Part shown: piece after piece, positions 4,898 to 19,380 of the stretch | How the letters are laid out: each line of letters begins with the position of its first letter | Position numbering within the stretch: the stretch's first letter is position 1 | Assembly (NCBI GenBank): GCA_030614005.1 | Contig: JAUWKS010000001.1 | Coordinates: forward strand, 30,001-62,000 | Origin: Candidatus Heimdallarchaeota archaeon | GTDB lineage: Archaea > Asgardarchaeota > Heimdallarchaeia > JABLTI01 | Direction of reading: 5' to 3' | Length of the DNA stretch: 32,000 nucleotides | Position numbers and translations under genes: made by a program | Notes under the pieces: generated by a model | What the model saw: only the letters and a program-made list of their open reading frames with translations | Told to the model about the DNA's origin: nothing | Databases searched by the model: none

Positions 4898-6355
4898 CTA
4901 TTTTCCAATTGCTTCTTTGCCTGTAAAGGACAAGTCATCTGTGGAAAACAATTCTCCTTCAGCATTGTAATCTGAACCGGTAAGTCCTTTTCTCGAGGAG
5001 TAAATCATCCCTAGTACCATTACAATTGTCAAGAAAATTGCTGCTGCAAGAATGATGAACTTTGGTGCGACATAAGCTGCAATAAGTGAAACAATTCCCA
5101 TACCAGTTAGTCTAGCAATTCCTTGAAGGAGTTGTTGGGCTCCAAATACTCGACCTTGTTTTTCAAATGGTATCTGCTCTTGAATTAATGTTGGAGCAGG
5201 GATATTTATACAAACAATTCCTATGCCAAACAACATTAAAATAATAACCATCAACCATACAATCCTAGTGAATGCAAATAAGAATAATACACCAGTTAGA
5301 CCCGCAAGAGCCATATTTAGCATCAATATTTTTCTGTTTATCTTACCAATACGCATCAATATCAAAGCAGTTATTATTCCTGATAAGCCCATACCAGCTT
5401 GTAGATATCCATACCAAGATTCATCTAAGCCCATCTCTCCTTGTAAAACAACAATAAAGAGTACATTAAATGTTGCAAAAGAGAAAATTGCAGAAGCAAA
5501 TATAACCAACATATAAGCTATTTTTGGTGTTTGTTTTATTGTTCTGTAACCAATGGCAATATCATCTATAAGACTCTTAATCTGTCTGCTAAATCCTACC
5601 GCTTTCTCAGGTCTCTCAACTTTCGGAGTTTTTGTCCCGAAAACCAGTAGTAATATAATCATTGTAAGCGAAAATGCAAAAGTCGAAGCATCAAATATGA
5701 AGCTACCTAAATAGCTTACACTTGCAATAATTCCTGCAAGAACAAACCCAACAATTGTTGCAATTTGGTAAACAGTTGCACCAATAGAATTTGCTACTAG
5801 GAGATTTTTCTTCTTAACAACTAATCTTGTATAGGCATTCCTTGCGGGGAAAAAGAATGCACCAGCTGTTGAATTAATAAATGTCAAAATAAACAAGGGC
5901 CATAAAACGTGAATATAATTGAAAACGTGCAATTCGGTGATAAACCCATACGAATATTCTAAATGATAAATTTCCTCAACAATCAAATAATTTCTAAGTA
6001 AATAAATTACAACGAATCCAAGGGAAGCGAACATGCTGATGAGATTAGACATTAACATAATTTTTCTTTGATCAAATCTATCCGTGTAAACTCCAGCTAA
6101 AGGAGTAAAGAGAACATAAGGTAACCAAAATGTTATCGATAGCAAACCCATCAAAGTTACGCTTCCAGTAGAAGCGAAAATGTAGAACTGTAATGCTAAC
6201 CAGGCAACTGATGCACCAATATTCTGTGCAAATTGGGCTGTAAAAAGCAAAACATATGATCCGTTTTTCAAAACTTCAATTATAGAGGCAGGTTCAGTTC
6301 CATTCTGGATATTAACATCACTGATAGTATCTGTTCCTTTCTCTGAAGCTTCCAA
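4898..6355 (-). CDS. MFS transporter (DHA3/macrolide-efflux-like)
   Basis: About 12 TM; motif A-like AGVYTDRFDQRKIM; QEQIPFEKQGRVFG repeat motif. TTG start uncertain. Confidence 0.9.
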   Translation of the reverse strand: MEASEKGTDTISDVNIQNGTEPASIIEVLKNGSYVLLFTAQFAQNIGASVAWLALQFYIFASTGSVTLMGLLSITFWLPYVLFTPLAGVYTDRFDQRKIMLMSNLISMFASLGFVVIYLLRNYLIVEEIYHLEYSYGFITELHVFNYIHVLWPLFILTFINSTAGAFFFPARNAYTRLVVKKKNLLVANSIGATVYQIATIVGFVLAGIIASVSYLGSFIFDASTFAFSLTMIILLLVFGTKTPKVERPEKAVGFSRQIKSLIDDIAIGYRTIKQTPKIAYMLVIFASAIFSFATFNVLFIVVLQGEMGLDESWYGYLQAGMGLSGIITALILMRIGKINRKILMLNMALAGLTGVLFLFAFTRIVWLMVIILMLFGIGIVCINIPAPTLIQEQIPFEKQGRVFGAQQLLQGIARLTGMGIVSLIAAYVAPKFIILAAAIFLTIVMVLGMIYSSRKGLTGSDYNAEGELFSTDDLSFTGKEAIGK

Positions 6356-10179: not shown

Positions 10180-11715
10180 TTGAGTAAAGTGGAATTTAAA
10201 CAACTTAGTCCGGCAGATTTTTTCTATCGCAACAGGGAATTAGCTGGTTTTGATACTCCTACAAAAAGTCTCTATACAGCTTTCAGAGAGATATTGGAAA
10301 ACTCTTTGGACGGTGCAGAAATAGGCGGTATTAATCCTGATATATTTATCGTAATTAAAAAGAAAAGTGAAGACGTTTACACGATTTTCATAAGTGATAA
10401 CGGAATAGGTATTCCTGGTAAAAAAGTACCTAATGCTCTAGCGAAGCTTCTTTTTGGTGGGAAATATGTTGAACGACAATCCAGAGGGCACTTTGGACTC
10501 GGAGCATCAATGACCGTCCTATATTCTCAAATTACAACCAATCTACCAACACGAGTATTAAGTTGTACAAGAGGGAGCGATGAAATTGATGAATATCATT
10601 TAATGATTAATATCCAGCGAAATGAACCAATCATCAGATATCATGCTAAATTACCCAACAAGAAAAAATGGCATGGCGTAACTGTTGAAGTGAATATCGA
10701 AGGAGATTATGGACGAGCGCATCCAAAAATCTTAGAATACATAAAAGCGACAGCAATGGTAGCACCATACGCAAACATAACATTCATAGACGCCTATGGC
10801 ACGCTTTATAAATTTAATAAAGTGATAGACGAAGTTCCAAAGCTAGGTGAACCAGTATTACCTCATCCAAGAGGAGTCGATACTGAAAAAATGCTTCGAT
10901 TGTTAAGAGTCGCGAGACAAAGATCAATGAATAAATTCCTTCAAAATAATTTCCAACGAATAGGAGAAATAACAGCAAAGAATTTCCTTAAATTTGTTGA
11001 TATTAAACCAGACAAAGACCCTCAAAAACTAGAGCACGATGAAATTGTTCGAATAGTTCAAGGAATGAATTCCTTTGAAGATTTTCTCAGCCCCGAAACA
11101 AAATGCCTTTCCCCAATTGGAGAGAATGTTCTTACTAAAGGCATAATGAAAGAATTAGAACCTGACTTTGTTACAGCAATTACGAGAAGACCACAAGCAT
11201 ATTCAGGTCATCCTTTCGTCATTGAAATTGCTTTTGCTTATGGAGGAAAAACAATTGAGAGAAGCTCCGAGCCAAATCTATTCCGATTTGCAAATAGAAT
11301 ACCACTACTGTATGATCAGTATGCAGACGTTTCAGCCAAAGTGATTCGAACATTCAACTGGCGAATGTATAAAGTTCCAGATAATGCTCAATTAGCTATC
11401 ATTACTCATGTTGCTTCTACCAAAGTTCCGTATAGAACTGCAGGGAAAGAATCTATTTCCGATCGAGAGGAAATTGAACGAGAAGTGAGATTAGCTATGC
11501 AGGTTTGTGCTAGAAAGCTTCGAGTGTATCTTTCAAGAATTGATAGAGAACATAGACAAGCAATACGAACAAGCATTTTTGAAAAATATGTTCCATACAT
11601 TGCTCGATTTGCCACTAGACTTAGTGGAAAGAAAACTATTCCCTCTACAGACTTTGTAGTAGGAGGAGGAGAAGCAAAAACTGAAGATCAGAAAGTCAAT
11701 TCAGGTGTGAAATGA
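10180..11715 (+). CDS. top6B: DNA topoisomerase VI subunit B
   Basis: GHKL motifs EILENSLDG, DNGIGI, RGHFGLGAS; H2TH region; RFANRIPLL transducer motif; TTG start. Confidence 0.97.
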   Translation: MSKVEFKQLSPADFFYRNRELAGFDTPTKSLYTAFREILENSLDGAEIGGINPDIFIVIKKKSEDVYTIFISDNGIGIPGKKVPNALAKLLFGGKYVERQSRGHFGLGASMTVLYSQITTNLPTRVLSCTRGSDEIDEYHLMINIQRNEPIIRYHAKLPNKKKWHGVTVEVNIEGDYGRAHPKILEYIKATAMVAPYANITFIDAYGTLYKFNKVIDEVPKLGEPVLPHPRGVDTEKMLRLLRVARQRSMNKFLQNNFQRIGEITAKNFLKFVDIKPDKDPQKLEHDEIVRIVQGMNSFEDFLSPETKCLSPIGENVLTKGIMKELEPDFVTAITRRPQAYSGHPFVIEIAFAYGGKTIERSSEPNLFRFANRIPLLYDQYADVSAKVIRTFNWRMYKVPDNAQLAIITHVASTKVPYRTAGKESISDREEIEREVRLAMQVCARKLRVYLSRIDREHRQAIRTSIFEKYVPYIARFATRLSGKKTIPSTDFVVGGGEAKTEDQKVNSGVK

Positions 11716-11716
11716 A

Positions 11717-12841
11717 ATGTCAAAACAAAAACCGGAAAATCGTGCAGAAAAAATAAAGCAACAATCATTTGATAAACTAGTTACACTTGGAAATAAAATA
11801 TACAAGCAACTCCAAGAAGAAAAATATCCTGAATTTGATATGCCATCAAGAACGAGCTCTAATATCTACTATGATGAAAAAACAAGACAATTTTCACTCG
11901 GGAAGAAGAAAATTAGAAGATCGTCAAGAAATGTTAGACATCTGAAACCGTTTCTACAAACAATGTTCGTTGCAATGTTCGCTGCTCGAGACCTTTTAGA
12001 ACCAGGAAGAACAAGCACATTGAGAGATCTGTACTATTCTTCAGAATCAGCAATGGCAAAAATGTTCAAAAACCAATCTGAATCGGACAATATTATCACC
12101 GATGTAGAATCAATTATTGGAATGGCTCGAGAGGATTTCAATATTTTTCCAGACGCTCGAAGCACTATTTATGGCGACCTGACTATTTCCTTCAAAGATA
12201 AGAAAACTGGAAACAAACGCGAAATTAATCTCACATTTAACCCAGATGGACAAACAATAGGTCCAACAATGGTTAGAAGTGATTTTGTAAAAACATCAGC
12301 AAAAAAGGTAATCTGTATCGAATCAGGTGGAATGTTTCAGAGATTAATTGAAGAAGATGCAGATGAAAAATTTGATGCTATTCTTGTCCATCTAGCAGGG
12401 CAAGCACCAAGAGGAACTAGAAGAATAATCAGAAGATTAAATGAAGAAATGGGATTACCTGTTTACGCATTTGTAGACGGAGATCCCTGGGGCATTCACA
12501 TCTACAATGTCATTGCTGCTGGTAGTGCTAGTGCAGCTCATCTTTCTGGTTTAACGACACCAGATGCAGTTTGGATGGGATTAACAGCCACAGATATAAC
12601 AAGATATGAACTTCCAACAGATCAATTTACTAAAGGAGACACAACTCGTACGGTTCAATTACTTCGTGACCCTCGTTATCAGAAGCCCTATCTTCAAGAA
12701 GAGTTAAAGAAATTCCTAAAGCTTAAACGAAAGGCAGAGCAACAATCTCTTACTTCAAAGAGTCTTACTTTTGTTGTTGATGAATATTTACCCGCAAAAT
12801 TCAAGGAAATTGAGAAATTACAGAAAGCAGGAAAAATCTAA
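11717..12841 (+). CDS. top6A: DNA topoisomerase VI subunit A
   Basis: TLRDLYY catalytic Tyr; TOPRIM IESGG and DGDPWG; KAEQQ motif; 1 bp after top6B. Confidence 0.97.
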   Translation: MSKQKPENRAEKIKQQSFDKLVTLGNKIYKQLQEEKYPEFDMPSRTSSNIYYDEKTRQFSLGKKKIRRSSRNVRHLKPFLQTMFVAMFAARDLLEPGRTSTLRDLYYSSESAMAKMFKNQSESDNIITDVESIIGMAREDFNIFPDARSTIYGDLTISFKDKKTGNKREINLTFNPDGQTIGPTMVRSDFVKTSAKKVICIESGGMFQRLIEEDADEKFDAILVHLAGQAPRGTRRIIRRLNEEMGLPVYAFVDGDPWGIHIYNVIAAGSASAAHLSGLTTPDAVWMGLTATDITRYELPTDQFTKGDTTRTVQLLRDPRYQKPYLQEELKKFLKLKRKAEQQSLTSKSLTFVVDEYLPAKFKEIEKLQKAGKI

Positions 12842-12843
12842 CA
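12806..12843 (+). repeat. Direct repeat copy 1 (top6A 3' end; putative attL)
   Basis: gaaattgagaaattacagaaagcaggaaaaatctaaca; 33/38 identical to 15380-15417, last 20 nt identical. Confidence 0.85.
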
Positions 12844-12882
12844 GTTCTTCCTCATTTATTAAACGTTGGTTTTAAAATAACA

Positions 12883-13320
12883 TCAACGTTTCCTTTTTTT
12901 AATTATTATTGGAATTATTACTGAAGTCGGAATGATTAATGAAGCACCAATTGAACCAATAATTATTGCATTTCGCACTGTGTTATCTTTATTTTCGATA
13001 ATTCTCCAAATGGCTAAAGGAAGAGCAGGTTGAACACTACTAGGATCAACAGTAAAACAAAAGATATAGTCCCCTTTTATGAAAGGGTCATAGATAGAAT
13101 AGATTTCTTGTTCTTCTGGTTTTGGTTCAGAAATAAATACGAATTCATTCTCATTGTTTTTCCCTAACAAACCACTGACTCCTTTGAATATATTATCATT
13201 ATAAGCAAGAAATCGATTAGTCGTAAAATCTATTGCTAGGTGCTGGATATCTTCATGAAAAAAAAATACTAACCAAATATCTTAGACAGGTATGTTTTTG
13301 TATCTATTTATCGAAGACAT
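12883..13320 (-). pseudogene. Remnant of a C-terminally anchored membrane/surface protein
   Basis: Ends in a TM helix plus KKRKR; frame open to 13281, in-frame TAA at 13282-13284, upstream ATG at 13320; no signal peptide. Confidence 0.5.
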
Positions 13321-13943
13321 ATCTTTTTTCTCTTTTTTGTTGTATACTTGCTCAAGAATTTTCTATTATGTAAAATTTTCATCTATTCTTTGTAAATTGA
13401 ATATATTCATGAAAAAAACACTTTTTTTTAAAGACTAGGTCATCAACTTTCAAAAACAAGTTTTTTTGCCGTTAGAGAAATCGCAAAGTGGATATTGACA
13501 AATTATTAGTATTATTTTTTCCCCTCTTTAAATATTTATGACATGGAGAAAAAAATGATTTAAATAAAAAGTTACTTATTATCTATTTAATGGTCATGAG
13601 CTCCATAAAATTAGACTCATACACTAAGAAACCTTTCATTGGTTAAATACTAGCACCATCTAAGCTTTATTCTCATTGATGAAAGTTAATGTTTTTTGAT
13701 GTATCCCTCAACAGAGCTTAAAATTGAACTTTATTTAGAACCAGTATAAAAAAAAGAAGCGTAAGTAAAGTATACTAAATAAGTACACATTAAACTTATA
13801 AAAAATAACCAGTGAGAAAGCTTGTCCTCGATTTACTTAAAAGAAGAGAAAAGTACAATAGCGAAAAGATATATTAATATCTAATATCAAATATTGTTTG
13901 GAGAGATATTATTTTTCTATTACAAAATAATTGGTGAGTTAAT

Positions 13944-14723
13944 TTGAAAAAGGAATATAGATTATTACAAATTTTAATAATTATAGCATTGCTTTTGACA
14001 TCTCAAATTCTTTCAGTAATCTCTTATGGACATGATTTTACTTTCCCATTTTATGATTATTCAGAAGGGGATGTAGCATACATTATCAATGATGAGTATC
14101 AAGGAATAAATAATACTCAACCATCTATAGATATTAAGTCTTTGAACAATAATATTACTTCATCACAAATAGAGCTTAATTTGTATGGGATACCAATACT
14201 TGATCCATCTCACGGTTATAGAATACTAATAAATTGGAATGGGGTGTTAAACTTTAATTATATATATATATTAGAAATTCAGAACTGGAACCTTGCTGTA
14301 CCCTCCACATCAAATATTACTCTCTGTTTTGCAGGGGGACTAAGTGGTTTTGGTATTTCAAATGGATCATATACTAGGCTTTGTAATAGTTCGGGAACAC
14401 CTATCTTAACTGAATCCAGGAACAATACTGTGAGTCTAGTTGGAAACTCACTTGTCTTTCCTTTCAACCAAACCTTGATAACAACTCCATCAAAACCTGT
14501 CGATGTTCTGGTTGTTACCACATACAATAGTACCACATCAGAAATATCAGGTACTTCAACTTCAGTCATAAAGAAAACATGGATAGATTCAACGGAAGAT
14601 AAATATATTTTAGATTTGTACAATATGGTAACAGCTCAAATAAAAATTAATCTTGTAATTTTTATTGGTATAATTGGAATAATAGGTACAAGTCAAGTTA
14701 TTTATTTGAAAAGAAGGAAGTAA
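13944..14723 (+). CDS. Secreted, C-terminally membrane-anchored cell-surface protein, unknown function
   Basis: GGTGA SD and TTG start; signal-peptide-like N-terminus; Ser/Thr/Asn-rich body with many N-x-S/T sequons; TM plus KRRK tail. Confidence 0.8.
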   Translation: MKKEYRLLQILIIIALLLTSQILSVISYGHDFTFPFYDYSEGDVAYIINDEYQGINNTQPSIDIKSLNNNITSSQIELNLYGIPILDPSHGYRILINWNGVLNFNYIYILEIQNWNLAVPSTSNITLCFAGGLSGFGISNGSYTRLCNSSGTPILTESRNNTVSLVGNSLVFPFNQTLITTPSKPVDVLVVTTYNSTTSEISGTSTSVIKKTWIDSTEDKYILDLYNMVTAQIKINLVIFIGIIGIIGTSQVIYLKRRK

Positions 14724-15379
14724 TTAATTATTTTCTTCTATTTTTTTCTCAATCATCCTCGAAAACTCTGTTAAAAAAATTTATTATTGTGATAGTATTC
14801 TTTTCTTTTTAAAAGGTAAAAAATTAAATATTTATAAAAAAATGCTAATAAATTGAGAAGTTTAGTATTACAATTATGTAGTTGATATTCTTCTTGAGGA
14901 TGTTGTTCGAGAGTTGCGTTTGCGTGATGTTCCTGAACTTCTCTTTCTCCATTCTGAACATAGAATCAAATATTGACTGATCCTTCCGGAATAGAACCTA
15001 GTTTGAGGGAAATCTTCCTCTGCAATTCTAGTTCTATATTTGTGTTTTTGCCTCAGTAACTGAAGCTCAAATTGATTTGAGTATTTTTAAACAGGACGAG
15101 AGCAGAGAGAAGCCCCCGTCACAGGAAAAGGGAGTTATTTATTTTATAGAGAGAGAGGTTTATGGGATTTGAAGAATAGACCATTCTTCAGTAGAGTAAT
15201 AGGAATTTAGCTATTTAAAGCTCTAAATGGAATACTTTCTTGTATCTCTTTAAGCTAACCAATTTAATGAGATGGAATCACATCTTGAGAGTGATCTACT
15301 TATGTCTCATGGTTCTTATCATCCCCCTTGGAGAGAAACGGAAGAAGACCGAAAAAAGAAGGCATTATTCTTACGGTAT

Positions 15380-15417
15380 GAAATTAGAGAATTACAAAAA
15401 GCAGGAAAAATCTAACA
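15380..15417 (+). repeat. Direct repeat copy 2 (displaced top6A 3' end; putative attR)
   Basis: gaaattagagaattacaaaaagcaggaaaaatctaaca encodes EIRELQKAGKI* versus EIEKLQKAGKI* at the end of top6A. Confidence 0.85.
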
Positions 15418-15443
15418 TTTTCCTGCCACGTTTTCTTTTTTTT

Positions 15444-16154
15444 CTATCCCGTTTCTGTCTCTCTTCCTATAGGGATTTTTTTCTTTACACTCTCTAATAG
15501 CCTTATTAATAATGCAATATCTAGCGATAAAACAATTAGCCCCGATGTTAGATGTAGAAAACCATTTGCACCTATTACCCAATCCATTAAAATATTACTC
15601 CAAGGTGGACCAATGGGTAGAATGAGAGCAACAGGTATACACAGTAAAACAACAATAGTGCCTATATATCTAACAGGCATTTTGAATGCTAATGTTAGAA
15701 ACATAAAAAATATACTGTAAGCTATCACAACTAAGGGGTTGAAATAGAATAATGTCCCTACAAAAACTCCTAACCCTTGTCCCCCATTAAATTTTAACCA
15801 GATAGGATAATTATGACCAATAACACATAAACCAGGACCAAGTATACACATGAAGGTATGGTAGATGTTTGATCCATCCAAAGCAATAAAATGTTTTAAA
15901 GAAAAAATATGGTCAATAAGTGCAATTGCAAGAGTTCCTTTAAAACAATCAAGAAGCAAGACAATATAACCGAATGTTATCCCAAACGTTCTTACTGCAT
16001 TCATTGCACCAGGGTTTCCGGTATTGTAATCTCTTAAATCCTTTCCTTTTACTAATTGCCCTAACCAAACAGAGGTAGGTATCGAACCAAGTAAATAGGA
16101 CCCAATACAGGCTAATATAATCCATAATATATCTATAGCTGCCATTTCTATCAT
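15444..16154 (-). CDS. plsY: PlsY-family glycerol-3-phosphate acyltransferase homologue (divergent motifs)
   Basis: YLLGSIP, DLR...GNPGAMNAVR, LDCFKG, GHNYPIW..F.GGQG motifs; multi-TM. Start could be 16145. Confidence 0.85.
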   Translation of the reverse strand: MIEMAAIDILWIILACIGSYLLGSIPTSVWLGQLVKGKDLRDYNTGNPGAMNAVRTFGITFGYIVLLLDCFKGTLAIALIDHIFSLKHFIALDGSNIYHTFMCILGPGLCVIGHNYPIWLKFNGGQGLGVFVGTLFYFNPLVVIAYSIFFMFLTLAFKMPVRYIGTIVVLLCIPVALILPIGPPWSNILMDWVIGANGFLHLTSGLIVLSLDIALLIRLLESVKKKIPIGRETETG

Positions 16155-16420
16155 ATCGTTGGAAATAGTTGATAATTAGCTTGATTATGAAAAGAGGTTA
16201 TTTTTAAATGTTGATTACAACCATCATTTTTGAGAAATCGATACGAAATATTTTTTTTGTGCTTATATAAATCAATAATTGGTAAATGATAGCTAAATGT
16301 CCGTTTTTCAAAATCAACTTTAAAGAAATTAAACAAACCAAAAAATGGGTTGATTCGTATAATATATAAAGAACTCATTACAAATATTAATACAGTCAAT
16401 ATGAGGGGGAAATAATTCAT
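16151..16420 (-). CDS. Hypothetical protein (doubtful)
   Basis: Long open frame in very AT-rich DNA whose stop overlaps the plsY ATG (ATGA); no recognisable motif; 5' end abuts the divergent receiver gene. Confidence 0.25.
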   Translation of the reverse strand: MNYFPLILTVLIFVMSSLYIIRINPFFGLFNFFKVDFEKRTFSYHLPIIDLYKHKKNISYRFLKNDGCNQHLKITSFHNQANYQLFPTI

Positions 16421-18847
16421 AATCAAATCAATGTCCTTCACCTTGAAGACAATAAAAAAGATGCAGAGTTAATTGAAGCAATGCTCACGTCTGAGCAAAT
16501 TGATTTTACTATTTTTCTAGTAGATAATCGTGAAGATTTTCTAAAAATATTGAACGAAAAAAAAATTGATCTAATTATTGCTGATTACAGCCTTCCCTCA
16601 TTCGATGGTCTCTCTGCTCTAAATTTACTACTAGAAATAAAACTGGACATTCCATTTATTTTTGTCTCTGGTGTTTTGAGTGAAGATGTAGCAATTGAGG
16701 CATTACATCATGGAGCAACAGATTATATTGTAAAGTCTAAGTTAGAAAGATTGATCCCATCGATTAAAAGAGTAATTCAAGAAATAAATGAAAGAGAACA
16801 AAGAAAAAAAATGGAGGAGGAAATTACTCAACACGAAGCAATGTATCAGAAAATAGGTGAACGTGTTCGAGGTTTTTTAAGGATGGATCTCCCCTCAGGA
16901 AAATTCACTTTAGTTGACAAATACTTTGTTGAGTTAAGTGGTTATTCAATGAATGAATGGTATCAAACACCAAATTTTCTTCAAAAAATTATCCATCAAG
17001 ATTTTCATGAATACTTTAATGAAAACTTCAAGAAAATGCAACAAGGAATTGTACCGAAAGTAATGGAGTATAAAATAATCCGTAAAGATGACAAGGTACG
17101 TTGGTGGATACAATTCAATCTTGGAGCATATGATATTGATCAAAAATTAATATCAATGTCAATGATAATTATTGATAACACTGAAATCAAGGAATCACAA
17201 TTAAAATATCAACACATATTTGAAAATGCTATTATTGGAATCTTTAGAATAGATATTAAAGCTGGTGAAATAACTGATGCTAATGATACAATGGCAAGAA
17301 TTTTCGGTTATGCATCAATTGATGAATTAAAAAAATATACAGCTAAGATTTTTAGCAATTTTGAAGAACAAAGAGAACCATTTCTTAAAATTATCCGTAA
17401 TGAAGGTTACGTTTTAGGATATCAGATGCGAGCAATAAAGAAAGACGGAACACCTATATGGATTAATTTATCTGGAAAATTATATCCTAGTGAAGGTTAT
17501 GTAGAAGGTTTTTTAATCGATATTTCTGATCGGAAAAAAGCTGAAGAGATGCTTGAAAGAGATAGAAGAGCATATCAAATTATGTCTGAAGCAGCATTGC
17601 AAGCAGAAGATATACCTGACTTGTGCAATCAAGTTTTAGTTGGACTTGTTGAAAACCTATATTTTGATTTTGGCGTTGTTCATTTGTATAATAAGGAAGA
17701 AGAATTACTTGAGCTAGTTGTAACTCATGGGATTACTAAAAAAGTCATTAAAGAAATAGAAAAAATTGCCTTGGATGATCCAGACTGTTTAACAGCAAAA
17801 GTTGCTAGAACTAAAAAAGCGATTTTTTCCCCAGATATAAGTAAAAGTAAAAAGTATCATCAGAAGAAGATATCACTTCACTCACCTGTTGTACAAGGTT
17901 TTGTTTCTTGGCCTATTTTAAATGCTGAAGGAAATTTACTTGGTACGGTGCAAATTTCATCAAAGAAACCTAAAGAACTACTTGAAGAAGATAGAGCTAT
18001 CTTTGAAACACTTGTGAAATTCTTCGCTATTGCTCTTGAAAGAAAGTTTGGAGAAAAAGCTCTACAAACGAGTGAAGAAAAGTATCGAAATTTATTTCAA
18101 GAAACACCTATAGGGATTTTATCTTGTGATAAAAAAGGAGTCATTCAATCTGTTAATAAAACAGCTCTTCAGATTCTTGGCTCACCTTCTGAAGAAGCAA
18201 CCAAAGAGATCAATCTGTTAACCTTTCCATTGTTAGTCAAATTTGGAATTTCCAAAGATCTCAAAACGTGTTTGAAAACTGGTGAAATGATTCAGAATGA
18301 AAGAGTATATAGTACAAAATGGGGTAAGGAAATCATTCTCCTTTACAAAATATTCCCCATGAAAGATCAAGATGGAAGTATTATAGGAGCTATGTCAACC
18401 TTTGAAGACATATCTGATAGAAAACATAATGAAAAATTACTTCTGGAAAGTGAGAGAAGATATAGATTGCTCGCTGAAAACATCACTGATGTTATTTTTA
18501 CACTAAATCTAAACTGGGAAATCACATACGCTAATCCTGCAATTAAAAATTTAATTGGATACACTGATAAAGAGATATTAGTAAAAAATCTGACTGAACT
18601 TCTTAAACCTCATTCATTAGAGTTAGCTTTTAAAACACTCTCAGAAGAGCTTGAAATTGAGGTAGAAGAGGACAAAGATCTTCACAGATCAAGAATAATA
18701 GATCTTGAGTTTAATTGCAAAGATGGATCTTCTGTTTTAGTAGAAGCCAAAGTCACTTTTCAACGTGATAATGATGATAAAGTAGTCGGTATGTTGGGTG
18801 TTCTCCGAGATATCTCCAGAAGAAAAGAGATGAAAAGTAAAGATTAG
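16415..18847 (+). CDS. Response regulator, REC-PAS-PAS-GAF-PAS-PAS, no output or kinase domain
   Basis: In-frame upstream extension gives INVLHLEDNKKDAELIEAML (receiver beta1); IADYSLPSFDG phospho-Asp; FVSG; DYIVK; repeated PAS C-terminal D(I/N)(S/T)xxK motifs. True start uncertain (no in-frame ATG before 16481). Confidence 0.85.
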   Translation: MHNQINVLHLEDNKKDAELIEAMLTSEQIDFTIFLVDNREDFLKILNEKKIDLIIADYSLPSFDGLSALNLLLEIKLDIPFIFVSGVLSEDVAIEALHHGATDYIVKSKLERLIPSIKRVIQEINEREQRKKMEEEITQHEAMYQKIGERVRGFLRMDLPSGKFTLVDKYFVELSGYSMNEWYQTPNFLQKIIHQDFHEYFNENFKKMQQGIVPKVMEYKIIRKDDKVRWWIQFNLGAYDIDQKLISMSMIIIDNTEIKESQLKYQHIFENAIIGIFRIDIKAGEITDANDTMARIFGYASIDELKKYTAKIFSNFEEQREPFLKIIRNEGYVLGYQMRAIKKDGTPIWINLSGKLYPSEGYVEGFLIDISDRKKAEEMLERDRRAYQIMSEAALQAEDIPDLCNQVLVGLVENLYFDFGVVHLYNKEEELLELVVTHGITKKVIKEIEKIALDDPDCLTAKVARTKKAIFSPDISKSKKYHQKKISLHSPVVQGFVSWPILNAEGNLLGTVQISSKKPKELLEEDRAIFETLVKFFAIALERKFGEKALQTSEEKYRNLFQETPIGILSCDKKGVIQSVNKTALQILGSPSEEATKEINLLTFPLLVKFGISKDLKTCLKTGEMIQNERVYSTKWGKEIILLYKIFPMKDQDGSIIGAMSTFEDISDRKHNEKLLLESERRYRLLAENITDVIFTLNLNWEITYANPAIKNLIGYTDKEILVKNLTELLKPHSLELAFKTLSEELEIEVEEDKDLHRSRIIDLEFNCKDGSSVLVEAKVTFQRDNDDKVVGMLGVLRDISRRKEMKSKD

Positions 18848-19202
18848 TCAATTTTACTTGACACCTTATCAACCATTTTCCATTCACCTTTAATTTTAAC
18901 AAAATTGTGAAAATCGTAATACCAATTAGCATATTGTAATTTTACACTGGCAATTGTTCCTTCTATTTGAATGGAAAGAATTTTGATAATAGCTTTATCA
19001 TACCATTCCTTCTTTGCTTTTTCATCTGGAAAGCGTACATGATCAGGTTTCCAGTGATCGTAAAGTTTCTTGCTAGTTTCAACATTGCCTAAAAATAGTC
19101 TTGCATCCGGATGGACAACAGAAATCATTTTCTTATAATCTAACTCTCTTGAACCTTCAATATATGTGCTTATCGTTTTTTTAGTTTTTCAAATTCAGTC
19201 AT
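18844..19202 (-). pseudogene. NTF2-like (putative lumazine-binding type) protein with a one-base frameshift
   Basis: ATG at 19202 reads MTEFEKLKKR*; adding one A in the A7 run (19176-19182) joins it to TISTYIEGSRELDYKKMISVVHPDARL...GEWKMVDKV, 119 aa. Confidence 0.75.
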
Positions 19203-19380
19203 AAGAATCCCAATTCACTTAGTTGATAGCAGATAATTAATATTGTCGGTAGTCTTCTTTTGATTTAATTACAAAAATTTATAGTTTCGATTACAGATTA
19301 ATATTTTATCCTTGAACCTTTCTTTGAGTTCATGGTTTGGCAACACATCCTTTACGGAACAAGGTTGGTGACTCATCACA

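Follow-up and report, generated by a model that had tools for sequence, protein, structure and literature searches.

A non-autonomous insertion in the terminator hairpin of a Heimdallarchaeal top6A gene, and a case for its origin through short homology

Introduction

What does a short exact repeat across the stop codon of a housekeeping gene say about the DNA between its two copies? The question is raised by top6A, a topoisomerase VI gene of Candidatus Heimdallarchaeota archaeon, in a stretch of 32,000 nucleotides (nt) that is termed here the window (assembly GCA_030614005.1, contig JAUWKS010000001.1, positions 30,001 to 62,000 of the forward strand). The end of top6A recurs 2574 bp downstream. 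The original prediction, made from the sequence of the window, took the islet between the copies for the remains of an integrative element that had entered at an attachment (att) site in top6A and had supplied the gene with a new C-terminus. On balance we lean towards a different explanation, namely that the segment at 12844-15400 is a real insertion, fixed and non-autonomous, which sits within the terminator hairpin of top6A, and that it arose independently of a recombinase, guided by short homology.

The assembly that holds the window is designated G000 (3.6 Mb, 90% complete, 67% A+T). G001, G003, G006 and G010 are congener genomes, C-numbers are contigs, and L-numbers denote individual relative loci or contigs (L039 is the G001 locus; L046, L047, L078 and L081 are G000:C6, G010:C38, G001:C5 and G010:C41, respectively).

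Results and Discussion

The direct repeat at the end of top6A

The top6A gene (11717-12841, + strand) is intact and has an ancestral-type tail, KEIEKLQKAGKI followed by the stop. It begins 1 nt after the end of top6B, the gene for topoisomerase VI subunit B (10180-11715, +; Pfam Topo-VIb_trans, 1.6e-59, and HATPase_c). The translated amino acid (aa) sequence belongs to the Top6A/Spo11 family, with the Pfam domains TP6A_N (1.1e-15, the winged helix with the catalytic Tyr) and TOP6A-Spo11_Toprim (1.8e-52), and is 52-56% identical to Top6A of Bathyarchaeia, Odin and Jord.

The repeat is as originally described. Positions 12806-12843 and 15380-15417 match at 33 of 38 nt, with complete identity over the last 20 nt (12824-12843 / 15398-15417). 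A TAA stop closes each copy in frame; copy 1 ends top6A with EIEKLQKAGKI, and copy 2 ends a 47-aa open reading frame (ORF47, 15272-15415) with EIRELQKAGKI. Deletion of the 2574 bp would leave 28 bp between the stop codons of top6A and the downstream gene plsY.

A chance match or an assembly artefact, which A-rich sequence in a genome of this base composition might favor, is effectively refuted already and is given next to no weight. In a search of the whole assembly that allowed up to 2 mismatches, the 20-mer AAAGCAGGAAAAATCTAACA was found at exactly 2 sites, the top6A stop and 2574 bp downstream of it. The window has no other direct repeat of 20 nt, and such repeats were absent from all 200 windows simulated with a Markov-1 model. 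The copies also fall on the boundaries of an indel, as described below. Both junctions are spanned by independent assemblies, i.e., Logan contigs from 4 runs of 2 studies and the ENA contig L100 (12.3 kb), and thus the repeat structure is real, is no assembly artefact, and is fixed in the sampled populations. This population check was made at the contig level. In contigs of the 4 runs, neither a joint bypassing the islet nor a circle junction was found; contigs drop rare variants, so rare excision is compatible with this result.

Two side observations concern the gene family. Nearly every genome of the class has a second Top6A/Spo11-like paralogue of 400-480 aa, 28-33% identical (in G000 at C67:32313-33347, -). 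Among the 41 genomes searched with this query, the canonical top6BA pair as in the window was found in family f1 alone.

Relatives without the interval

Homology to G001, G010 and L097 breaks at the top6A stop codon. In G001, whose Top6A is 94% identical, homology to the window stops there and resumes at 15437, 20 nt past copy 2. The gap at this “empty” site consists of 240 unrelated bp with a 44-aa DegV-like C-terminal fragment (L039:3271-3405). L097 is the closest relative found (Top6A 98% identical in protein, 95% in DNA). Here top6A is followed by approximately 600 bp and then by a sulfotransferase gene 97% identical to window 19307-19664; the islet, plsY, orf96 and the PAS gene are lacking. 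Locus P0036 covers only the 5′ part of top6A. With the interval missing from G001 and L097, both of which carry other, unrelated filler after top6A, the islet is a genuine insertion whose limits coincide exactly with the repeat, and this part of the original prediction stands.

The proposed element-supplied tail is not supported for G000. The G000 tail differs from the insertion-free tail of G001 at 1 of 36 nt, and hardly at all from an ancestral tail that is displaced in G010. No replacement C-terminus is shown in G000, since top6A there keeps its ancestral tail, and the new flank that follows copy 1 has no top6A-type hairpin arm.

A replacement tail of the kind predicted is found in two congeners. 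G010 has an intact top6A with a foreign tail (EIEKMKKEGKL and stop), then an insert of 7.1 kb, then a decaying 345-nt top6A fragment whose tail and downstream flank are still ancestral, as in L097. The insert holds an SBP_bac_5 gene, an FtsX/MacB-type permease and unknown ORFs, with no integrase. In G003 the intact gene ends in EITKMQKSGEI and stop, and is followed by a DUF1330 gene and a fragment of about 87 nt with a G006-type tail and flank. The ancestral tail has been displaced downstream by about 0.5 kb in G003 and by 7.1 kb in G010. In both genomes the imported tail forms a stem with the new flank that follows it (12 bp in G010 and 10 bp in G003), so tail and flank came together from another top6A locus. 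Since G010 and G003 both carry imported tails together with displaced ancestral ones, the 3′ end of top6A is a recurrent insertion point. Tandem duplication was considered for G010 and rejected, as the top6A piece is the only duplicated part.

Another G010 contig carries scraps of the foreign-type tail. L047 (2066 bp) is circular-looking, with 106 identical bases at both ends, and has two such scraps (318-402 and 1638-1664) beside broken toxin-antitoxin genes; its genes are a truncated MazE/AbrB antitoxin, the C-terminal half of a PIN toxin and an alpha/beta hydrolase.

The terminator hairpin of top6A

Copy 2 together with its flank (15401-15443, +) folds into a perfect 9-bp stem (GCAGGAAAA / TTTTCCTGC) with an 8-nt loop that holds the stop codon, followed by a T-run. 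Folds were scored in kcal/mol and as z against 200 shuffles. This fold reaches -11.8 kcal/mol (z -4.07), and 0 of 200 shuffles are equally good. Tail-embedded hairpins of the same design are present in G001, G010, G003, G006 and L085, and in the stray tail fragment on G010:C38; the positions compared are window 12818-12843 and 15392-15443, L039:3207-3260, L038:3706-3775, L043:2905-2965 and L085:2250-2305. Given the perfect hairpin and its counterparts in relatives, copy 2 plus its flank represents the terminator that top6A originally had, now orphaned from the gene.

Important is the extent of the duplicated segment, which corresponds exactly to the 5′ arm plus the loop of this hairpin. The left junction follows directly upon copy 1 (the exact 20-nt repeat, 12824-12843, +), after position 12843 between TAACA and GTTC, and lies at the boundary of the loop and the 3′ arm. 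The tail of copy 1 with the islet flank folds at only -4.2 kcal/mol (z +0.36), no better than shuffles. This weak fold argues that the left flank, unlike those of G010 and G003, is not the arm of another top6A locus. The islet brings a hairpin of its own with a T7 run at 12861-12899 (in a fold of 12818-12905, a 10-bp stem and -13.2 kcal/mol in total, z -2.67). Situated about 20-60 nt past the left junction, it is now the likely terminator both for top6A and for ORF95, a gene remnant within the islet.

As observations in their own right, the top6A stop codon lies inside the terminator hairpin in every lineage examined, and the last codons and the downstream arm co-vary between lineages, i.e., there is compensatory variation across the coding/non-coding border.

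The second copy is a chimera

The DNA that leads into copy 2 (15068-15400, +) is, by homology to paralogues, a multi-copy module consisting of a promoter plus a Zn-ribbon gene, truncated here after codon 43. A full-length paralogue, P0001 (93 aa), is on G000:C6 and reads ...ALFLRYEIRELQKTMRLCTKCGQF...; further copies are on C41 and C10 of G010. The islet module is 90% identical to G000:C6:9257-9586, 86% to the copy on C41 and 84% to that on C10, with a common left boundary at 15068. The homology spans a conserved promoter/leader and 43 codons and ends exactly at 15400, after GAATTACAAAAA. Past this break the paralogues on C6, C41 and C10 go on as ...QKTMRLCTKCG. ORF47 thus contains the 5′ part of the 93-aa Zn-ribbon gene and lacks all four ribbon Cys; the 47-aa frame itself is a fusion artefact. 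The Zn-ribbon family was found in this genus alone.

The five mismatches to copy 1 all fall in the first 21 nt of copy 2. These 21 nt are therefore native to the Zn-ribbon gene, whose full-length paralogues read ...EIRELQKTMRLC..., and the crossover that had been placed near a shared GAAATT is not supported. Since the EIRELQK part of copy 2 is native Zn-ribbon-gene sequence, only 17-20 nt are duplicated. The top6A-derived letters are GCAGGAAAAATCTAACA, 17 nt (15401-15417, +) that comprise the last 4 codons, the stop codon and CA; up to three further A's are ambiguous. Judged by these paralogues, the reading of the repeat as a 38-nt att site fails, as the two copies do not both descend from an att core over the 38 nt.

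The Zn-ribbon-gene sequence at the right junction (15380-15400, +) is nevertheless similar to the top6A tail, with a match of 16/21. Among all G000 positions, the fraction that matches the top6A tail at 16/21 or better is 2.5e-5. Because such a match is so rare, the join appears to have been guided by short homeology, and the tract is not a diverged att arm.

A proposed short-homology event at a stalled hairpin

The product can be accounted for by a single event. A template switch at the stalled hairpin would copy ectopic DNA, and return would occur by annealing just upstream of the hairpin, at the homeologous ...GAAATTAGAGAATTACAAAAA, with the 17 nt being re-copied. One-ended invasion or end-joining would be an alternative route to the same product. 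In the product, the truncated Zn-ribbon copy is joined directly to the last 17 nt of top6A and the original hairpin arm; top6A retains its own C-terminus but is cut off from the 3′ arm of its former terminator, and reads into the islet-borne hairpin instead. The setting is an intergenic hotspot between top6A and a PALP-family gene, where cassettes of about 1 kb, running from promoter to terminator, come and go between lineages.

We infer this mechanism from its product, and consider a short-homology event of this kind, without a recombinase, somewhat probable. It would explain the re-copied arm plus loop, the homeology, the truncated donor gene and the lack of element machinery. In support, two cassettes described below, that of ORF259 and the plsY unit, move without att-like ends. 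An illegitimate junction at short homology is present in G000, at the right junction; the 3′ end of the anchor gene is of donor type in G010 and G003, but not in G000.

Several points weigh against this explanation. An exact 20-nt repeat over the stop codon of a conserved gene also has the look of an att scar left by a tyrosine integrase. A recombinase acting in trans could be missed, because the assembly is 90% complete. In addition, G010 has the same Zn-ribbon promoter module no more than about 90 bp upstream of its displaced 345-nt fragment, a coincidence that a random one-step event in G000 does not predict. Either the inserts may have a common ancestor, or the module and top6A may be linked mechanistically.

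The position of the module in G010, immediately upstream of the displaced fragment, is what an origin in two steps would account for. An ancestor would have carried a G010-like insertion, consisting of imported DNA, the Zn-ribbon module and a long displaced 3′ fragment of top6A, brought in by recombination in top6A, either of the Campbell type or anchor-based and similar to homology-facilitated illegitimate recombination (HFIR). A deletion between codon 43 of the Zn-ribbon gene and the homeologous tail would later have trimmed the fragment to 17 nt, and G001 and L097 would have lost the insert or never had it. Displaced fragments with ancestral tails and flanks do exist, at 345 nt in G010 and about 87 nt in G003; deletion between short direct repeats is seen live within the islet, and the 16/21 homeology would suit such a deletion. 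However, the module copies do not group by orthologue. The islet copy is 77% identical to the copy in the G010 insert, as against 86-87% to C6 and C41, the G010 insert copy is closest to G010's own C41, and nothing else is common to both inserts. These similarities do not by themselves separate one event from two, as copies resemble the paralogues of their own genome. The left flank in G000 also lacks the top6A-type hairpin arm expected of an imported top6A 3′ end, and extra losses are required since the closer relatives G001 and L097 lack the insert. An origin in two steps is thus regarded as unlikely, although the shared module makes it a serious rival.

Search for recombinases and other signs of a mobile element

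If the islet were a decayed site-specific element, as the original prediction held, attP and attB would have recombined in the top6A tail, and the integrase would have been lost or would act in trans. This is compatible with the exact 20-nt repeat across the stop codon, with the empty sites in relatives and with the repeated use of the same gene end in three species. Archaeal integrated mobile genetic elements (iMGEs) use 3′-distal parts of protein genes, with att sites often shorter than 25 bp (PMC6563490). Other exact gene-tail repeats in G000, e.g., at the gene for aEF-2 (44 nt, 7.9 kb) and on C110 (56 nt, 16.4 kb), point in the same direction.

Pfam searches found no integrase in the G000 islet or in the G010 and G003 inserts, and no other hallmark of a mobile genetic element (MGE) is present in the three; in the islet no ORF has a recombinase match, and no transposase or Cas1 match was detected. 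Genome-wide, G000 has one PF00589 match, to a tyrosine recombinase on C58 at a contig end (20347-20658), and no match to PF00239 (serine recombinase), PF00665 (rve) or PF01867 (Cas1). The later loss of an integrase, as originally supposed, is thus not borne out by any of the three inserts, and the single PF00589 match of the genome is on another contig. No inverted repeat joining the islet ends was found. Among viral contigs there was no relative of Top6A or of the Zn-ribbon protein, and none was found with a top6A fragment. A metagenome scan with Top6A gave 8 loci (78-84% identity); in none of them does a second tail copy or an integrase lie beside top6A. It should also be noted that the right end of the islet lies inside a truncated gene of a host family, with adjacent homeology that a site-specific enzyme leaves unexplained, and that the length of the duplication varies widely between events (17, ~87 and 345 nt). 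We therefore hold a site-specific element to be improbable. A target-site duplication from a staggered cut of the casposon/Cas1 type was also considered and rejected; there are no terminal inverted repeats and no Pfam Cas1 match, and the duplication would not explain the junction homeology.

A scan of the G000 genome for ORF tails that recur (≥16 nt) no more than 25 kb downstream gave 13 cases. On C83, the 44 nt around the stop (-14 to +30) of the elongation factor 2 gene (744 aa, stop at 6061, +) recur without change 7860 bp downstream, and the copies bracket three large minus-strand ORFs. The aEF-2 gene is the classic casposon target in other archaea. On C110 a 56-nt exact gene-tail repeat (stop at 51222, -), with its copy 16390 bp downstream, brackets a 16.4-kb block of large unknown ORFs.

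Content of the islet

The islet is a non-autonomous mosaic, made up of what remains of a surface protein, of repeat modules and of a movable cassette with one gene. At its left side, ORF95 (12883-13170, -) is apparently the C-terminal remnant of a membrane-anchored protein, with a transmembrane (TM) segment plus KKRKR. Its frame is open upstream without a start codon, it has no paralogue in the genome, and it has no Pfam match. An AT-rich non-coding stretch of about 740 bp follows (13171-13906), in which a 21-nt direct repeat (13244-13264 / 13398-13418) is spaced by 154 bp. A population variant lacks 13252-13405; in a contig of run X1, position 13251 is followed directly by 13406, and 13 letters are shared at the joint. 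This 154-bp polymorphism is live short-repeat recombination inside the islet, i.e., a deletion between the 21-nt repeats.

The next segment (13907-14753, +, 847 bp) is a movable cassette with ORF259 (13944-14723, 259 aa), 82% identical to G001:C5:1977-2820. The encoded protein is of a surface type, with a signal/TM N-terminus, many N-x-S/T sequons and a C-terminal TM anchor, and has no Pfam match. In G001 the cassette is part of 1195 bp inserted between ecfT and a MetAP-like gene, at a site that is empty in G000 (G000:C73:32538/9). A repeat piece of 143 bp (14870-15012), 81% identical to G000:C77:9947-10090, precedes the Zn-ribbon module. An Rfam search of 12700-15600 gave no match at E≤1.

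A multi-copy repeat of about 75-90 nt (...ATCTCTGGT.C.CC.CTAGGAACAG.TGAG.GGAGGGTTC...) is found at L078 (G001:C5) 1892-1982, at the 3′ end of L104 and at several G000 contig ends. Repeats of the ATCTCTGGT type are often located at contig ends (G000 C124, C79, C117 and C11), and one adjoins the ORF258 cassette in G001. At the orthologous loci L046 (G000:C6, 7189-9385) and L081 (G010:C41), two inward-facing Zn-ribbon genes flank differing cargo, which is a Schlafen/AlbA_2 gene in G000 and other DNA of about 1.1 kb in G010.

The variable region between top6A and PALP

Across the genus, the ancestral neighbor of top6A is a convergent PALP-family gene (window 22987-24195). The distance between the two is approximately 25 bp in L085, and elsewhere 1.5 to ~10 kb of lineage-specific genes intervene. 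top6A is kept throughout the genus, and the content downstream of it differs in every lineage.

Older content of this hotspot, outside of the islet, includes a plsY-like cassette (15438-16345, -; gene 15444-16154, Pfam G3P_acyltransf) that is convergent with top6A. The unit, 908 bp with the gene and its upstream region, recurs in another lineage (L104:3064-3969, 87%), where it is situated after the rpl3-rpl4-rpl23-rpl2 operon and before a tRNA gene; in L097 and G010 the interval from top6A to the sulfotransferase gene lacks it. The G000 assembly is without rpl2, contig C7 ending at that point. The plsY unit behaves as a movable cassette. Other observations concern the same region. The DegV-like scrap in G001 is another gene-tail remnant at the top6A-plsY hotspot. 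Window segment 20565-22969, with a hicBA-type cassette and a GT28-type glycosyltransferase, is missing between the sulfotransferase and PALP genes of G001 and G010, and is a second G000-specific indel of the region. No older scars of the top6A tail were found at 12842-26000; a 15/16 match at 21663 is inside a glycosyltransferase ORF and was dismissed as chance.

A wider reading is that cassettes circulate in this Heimdall genus much as in integrons, but with no integrase linked to them. The units, approximately 1 kb long and running from promoter to terminator, among which may be the ORF259, plsY, Zn-ribbon, hicBA and vapBC modules, would be moved by an unrecognized trans-acting or structure-specific recombination activity to terminator-hairpin targets, possibly the 3′ ends of top6A, aEF-2 and rpl2, and the 17-nt duplication of arm plus loop may be its footprint. 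This reading is speculative, and we rate it as very unlikely.

Comparison with known systems

Integration at the 3′ end of a protein gene has a familiar example in Escherichia coli, where e14 and phage 21 integrate in the 3′ end of icd, supply a 165-bp alternative end and encode an integrase. The Heimdall locus is similar in that the insertion is in the 3′ end of an essential gene and the gene end is duplicated, with G010 and G003 showing the closer resemblance; G000, unlike e14 and phage 21, has neither an alternative end nor an integrase.

That protein-coding att sites might be undescribed, as was suggested originally, is contradicted by archaeal cases. Of 68 thaumarchaeal iMGEs, 14 are in 3′-distal regions of protein genes, and one element in a protein gene replaces the stop codon (PMC6563490). 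A literature search found no paper naming top6A as an integration target. The islet shares with the archaeal iMGEs a short direct repeat over the end of a protein gene, an empty site in a relative and a preserved frame. However, those elements carry integrases or casposases and MGE genes, of which the islet has none, and one of its repeat copies is fused by homeology to a truncated gene of a host family.

Within the same or a close host group, the Asgard archaea, the Heimdallarchaeal HeimV1/V2 and aloposons (PMC8813620) and the integrated MGEs of Atabeyarchaeia (PMC11529989) have short att repeats. They are located at tRNA genes or at an 11-bp AT-rich site, have integrases or giant genes, and circular forms have been shown (PMC8813620, PMC11529989). 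The islet, in contrast, is without a tRNA or 11-bp target, an integrase or a giant gene, and no circle junction was seen in the contigs of the 4 runs.

A further parallel is in the orphan 3′-end arrays at Rhs and type VI secretion system (T6SS) effector-immunity loci, which have been attributed to HFIR (PMC5361080, where de Vries & Wackernagel 2002 and Prudhomme et al. 2002 are cited as sources). As in those arrays, there is a conserved upstream anchor with new DNA right after it and old 3′ pieces pushed downstream, with one illegitimate junction and no integrase; G010 and G003 are the closest fit. Different are the host, an archaeon, and the anchor, a housekeeping topoisomerase gene and not a polymorphic toxin locus; in G000, moreover, the anchor keeps its tail, the displaced piece measures only 17 nt, and a terminator hairpin holds the junction. 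Under HFIR, foreign linear DNA with one homologous end would have been taken up.

Implications

For annotation, the locus is a warning that a tidy repeat over a stop codon is not necessarily an att site. For the biology of these organisms, it indicates that accessory genes enter and leave an Asgard genome of the Heimdall group without recognizable mobile-element machinery. The landing points are conserved gene ends with built-in terminator hairpins, imported tails travel with the matching hairpin arm, and the junctions are of short homology. The wider pattern consists of several gene-tail hotspots and of small cassettes at different sites in sister genomes; should it prove to be enzyme-driven, the archaea most closely related to eukaryotes would have a novel gene-cassette system.

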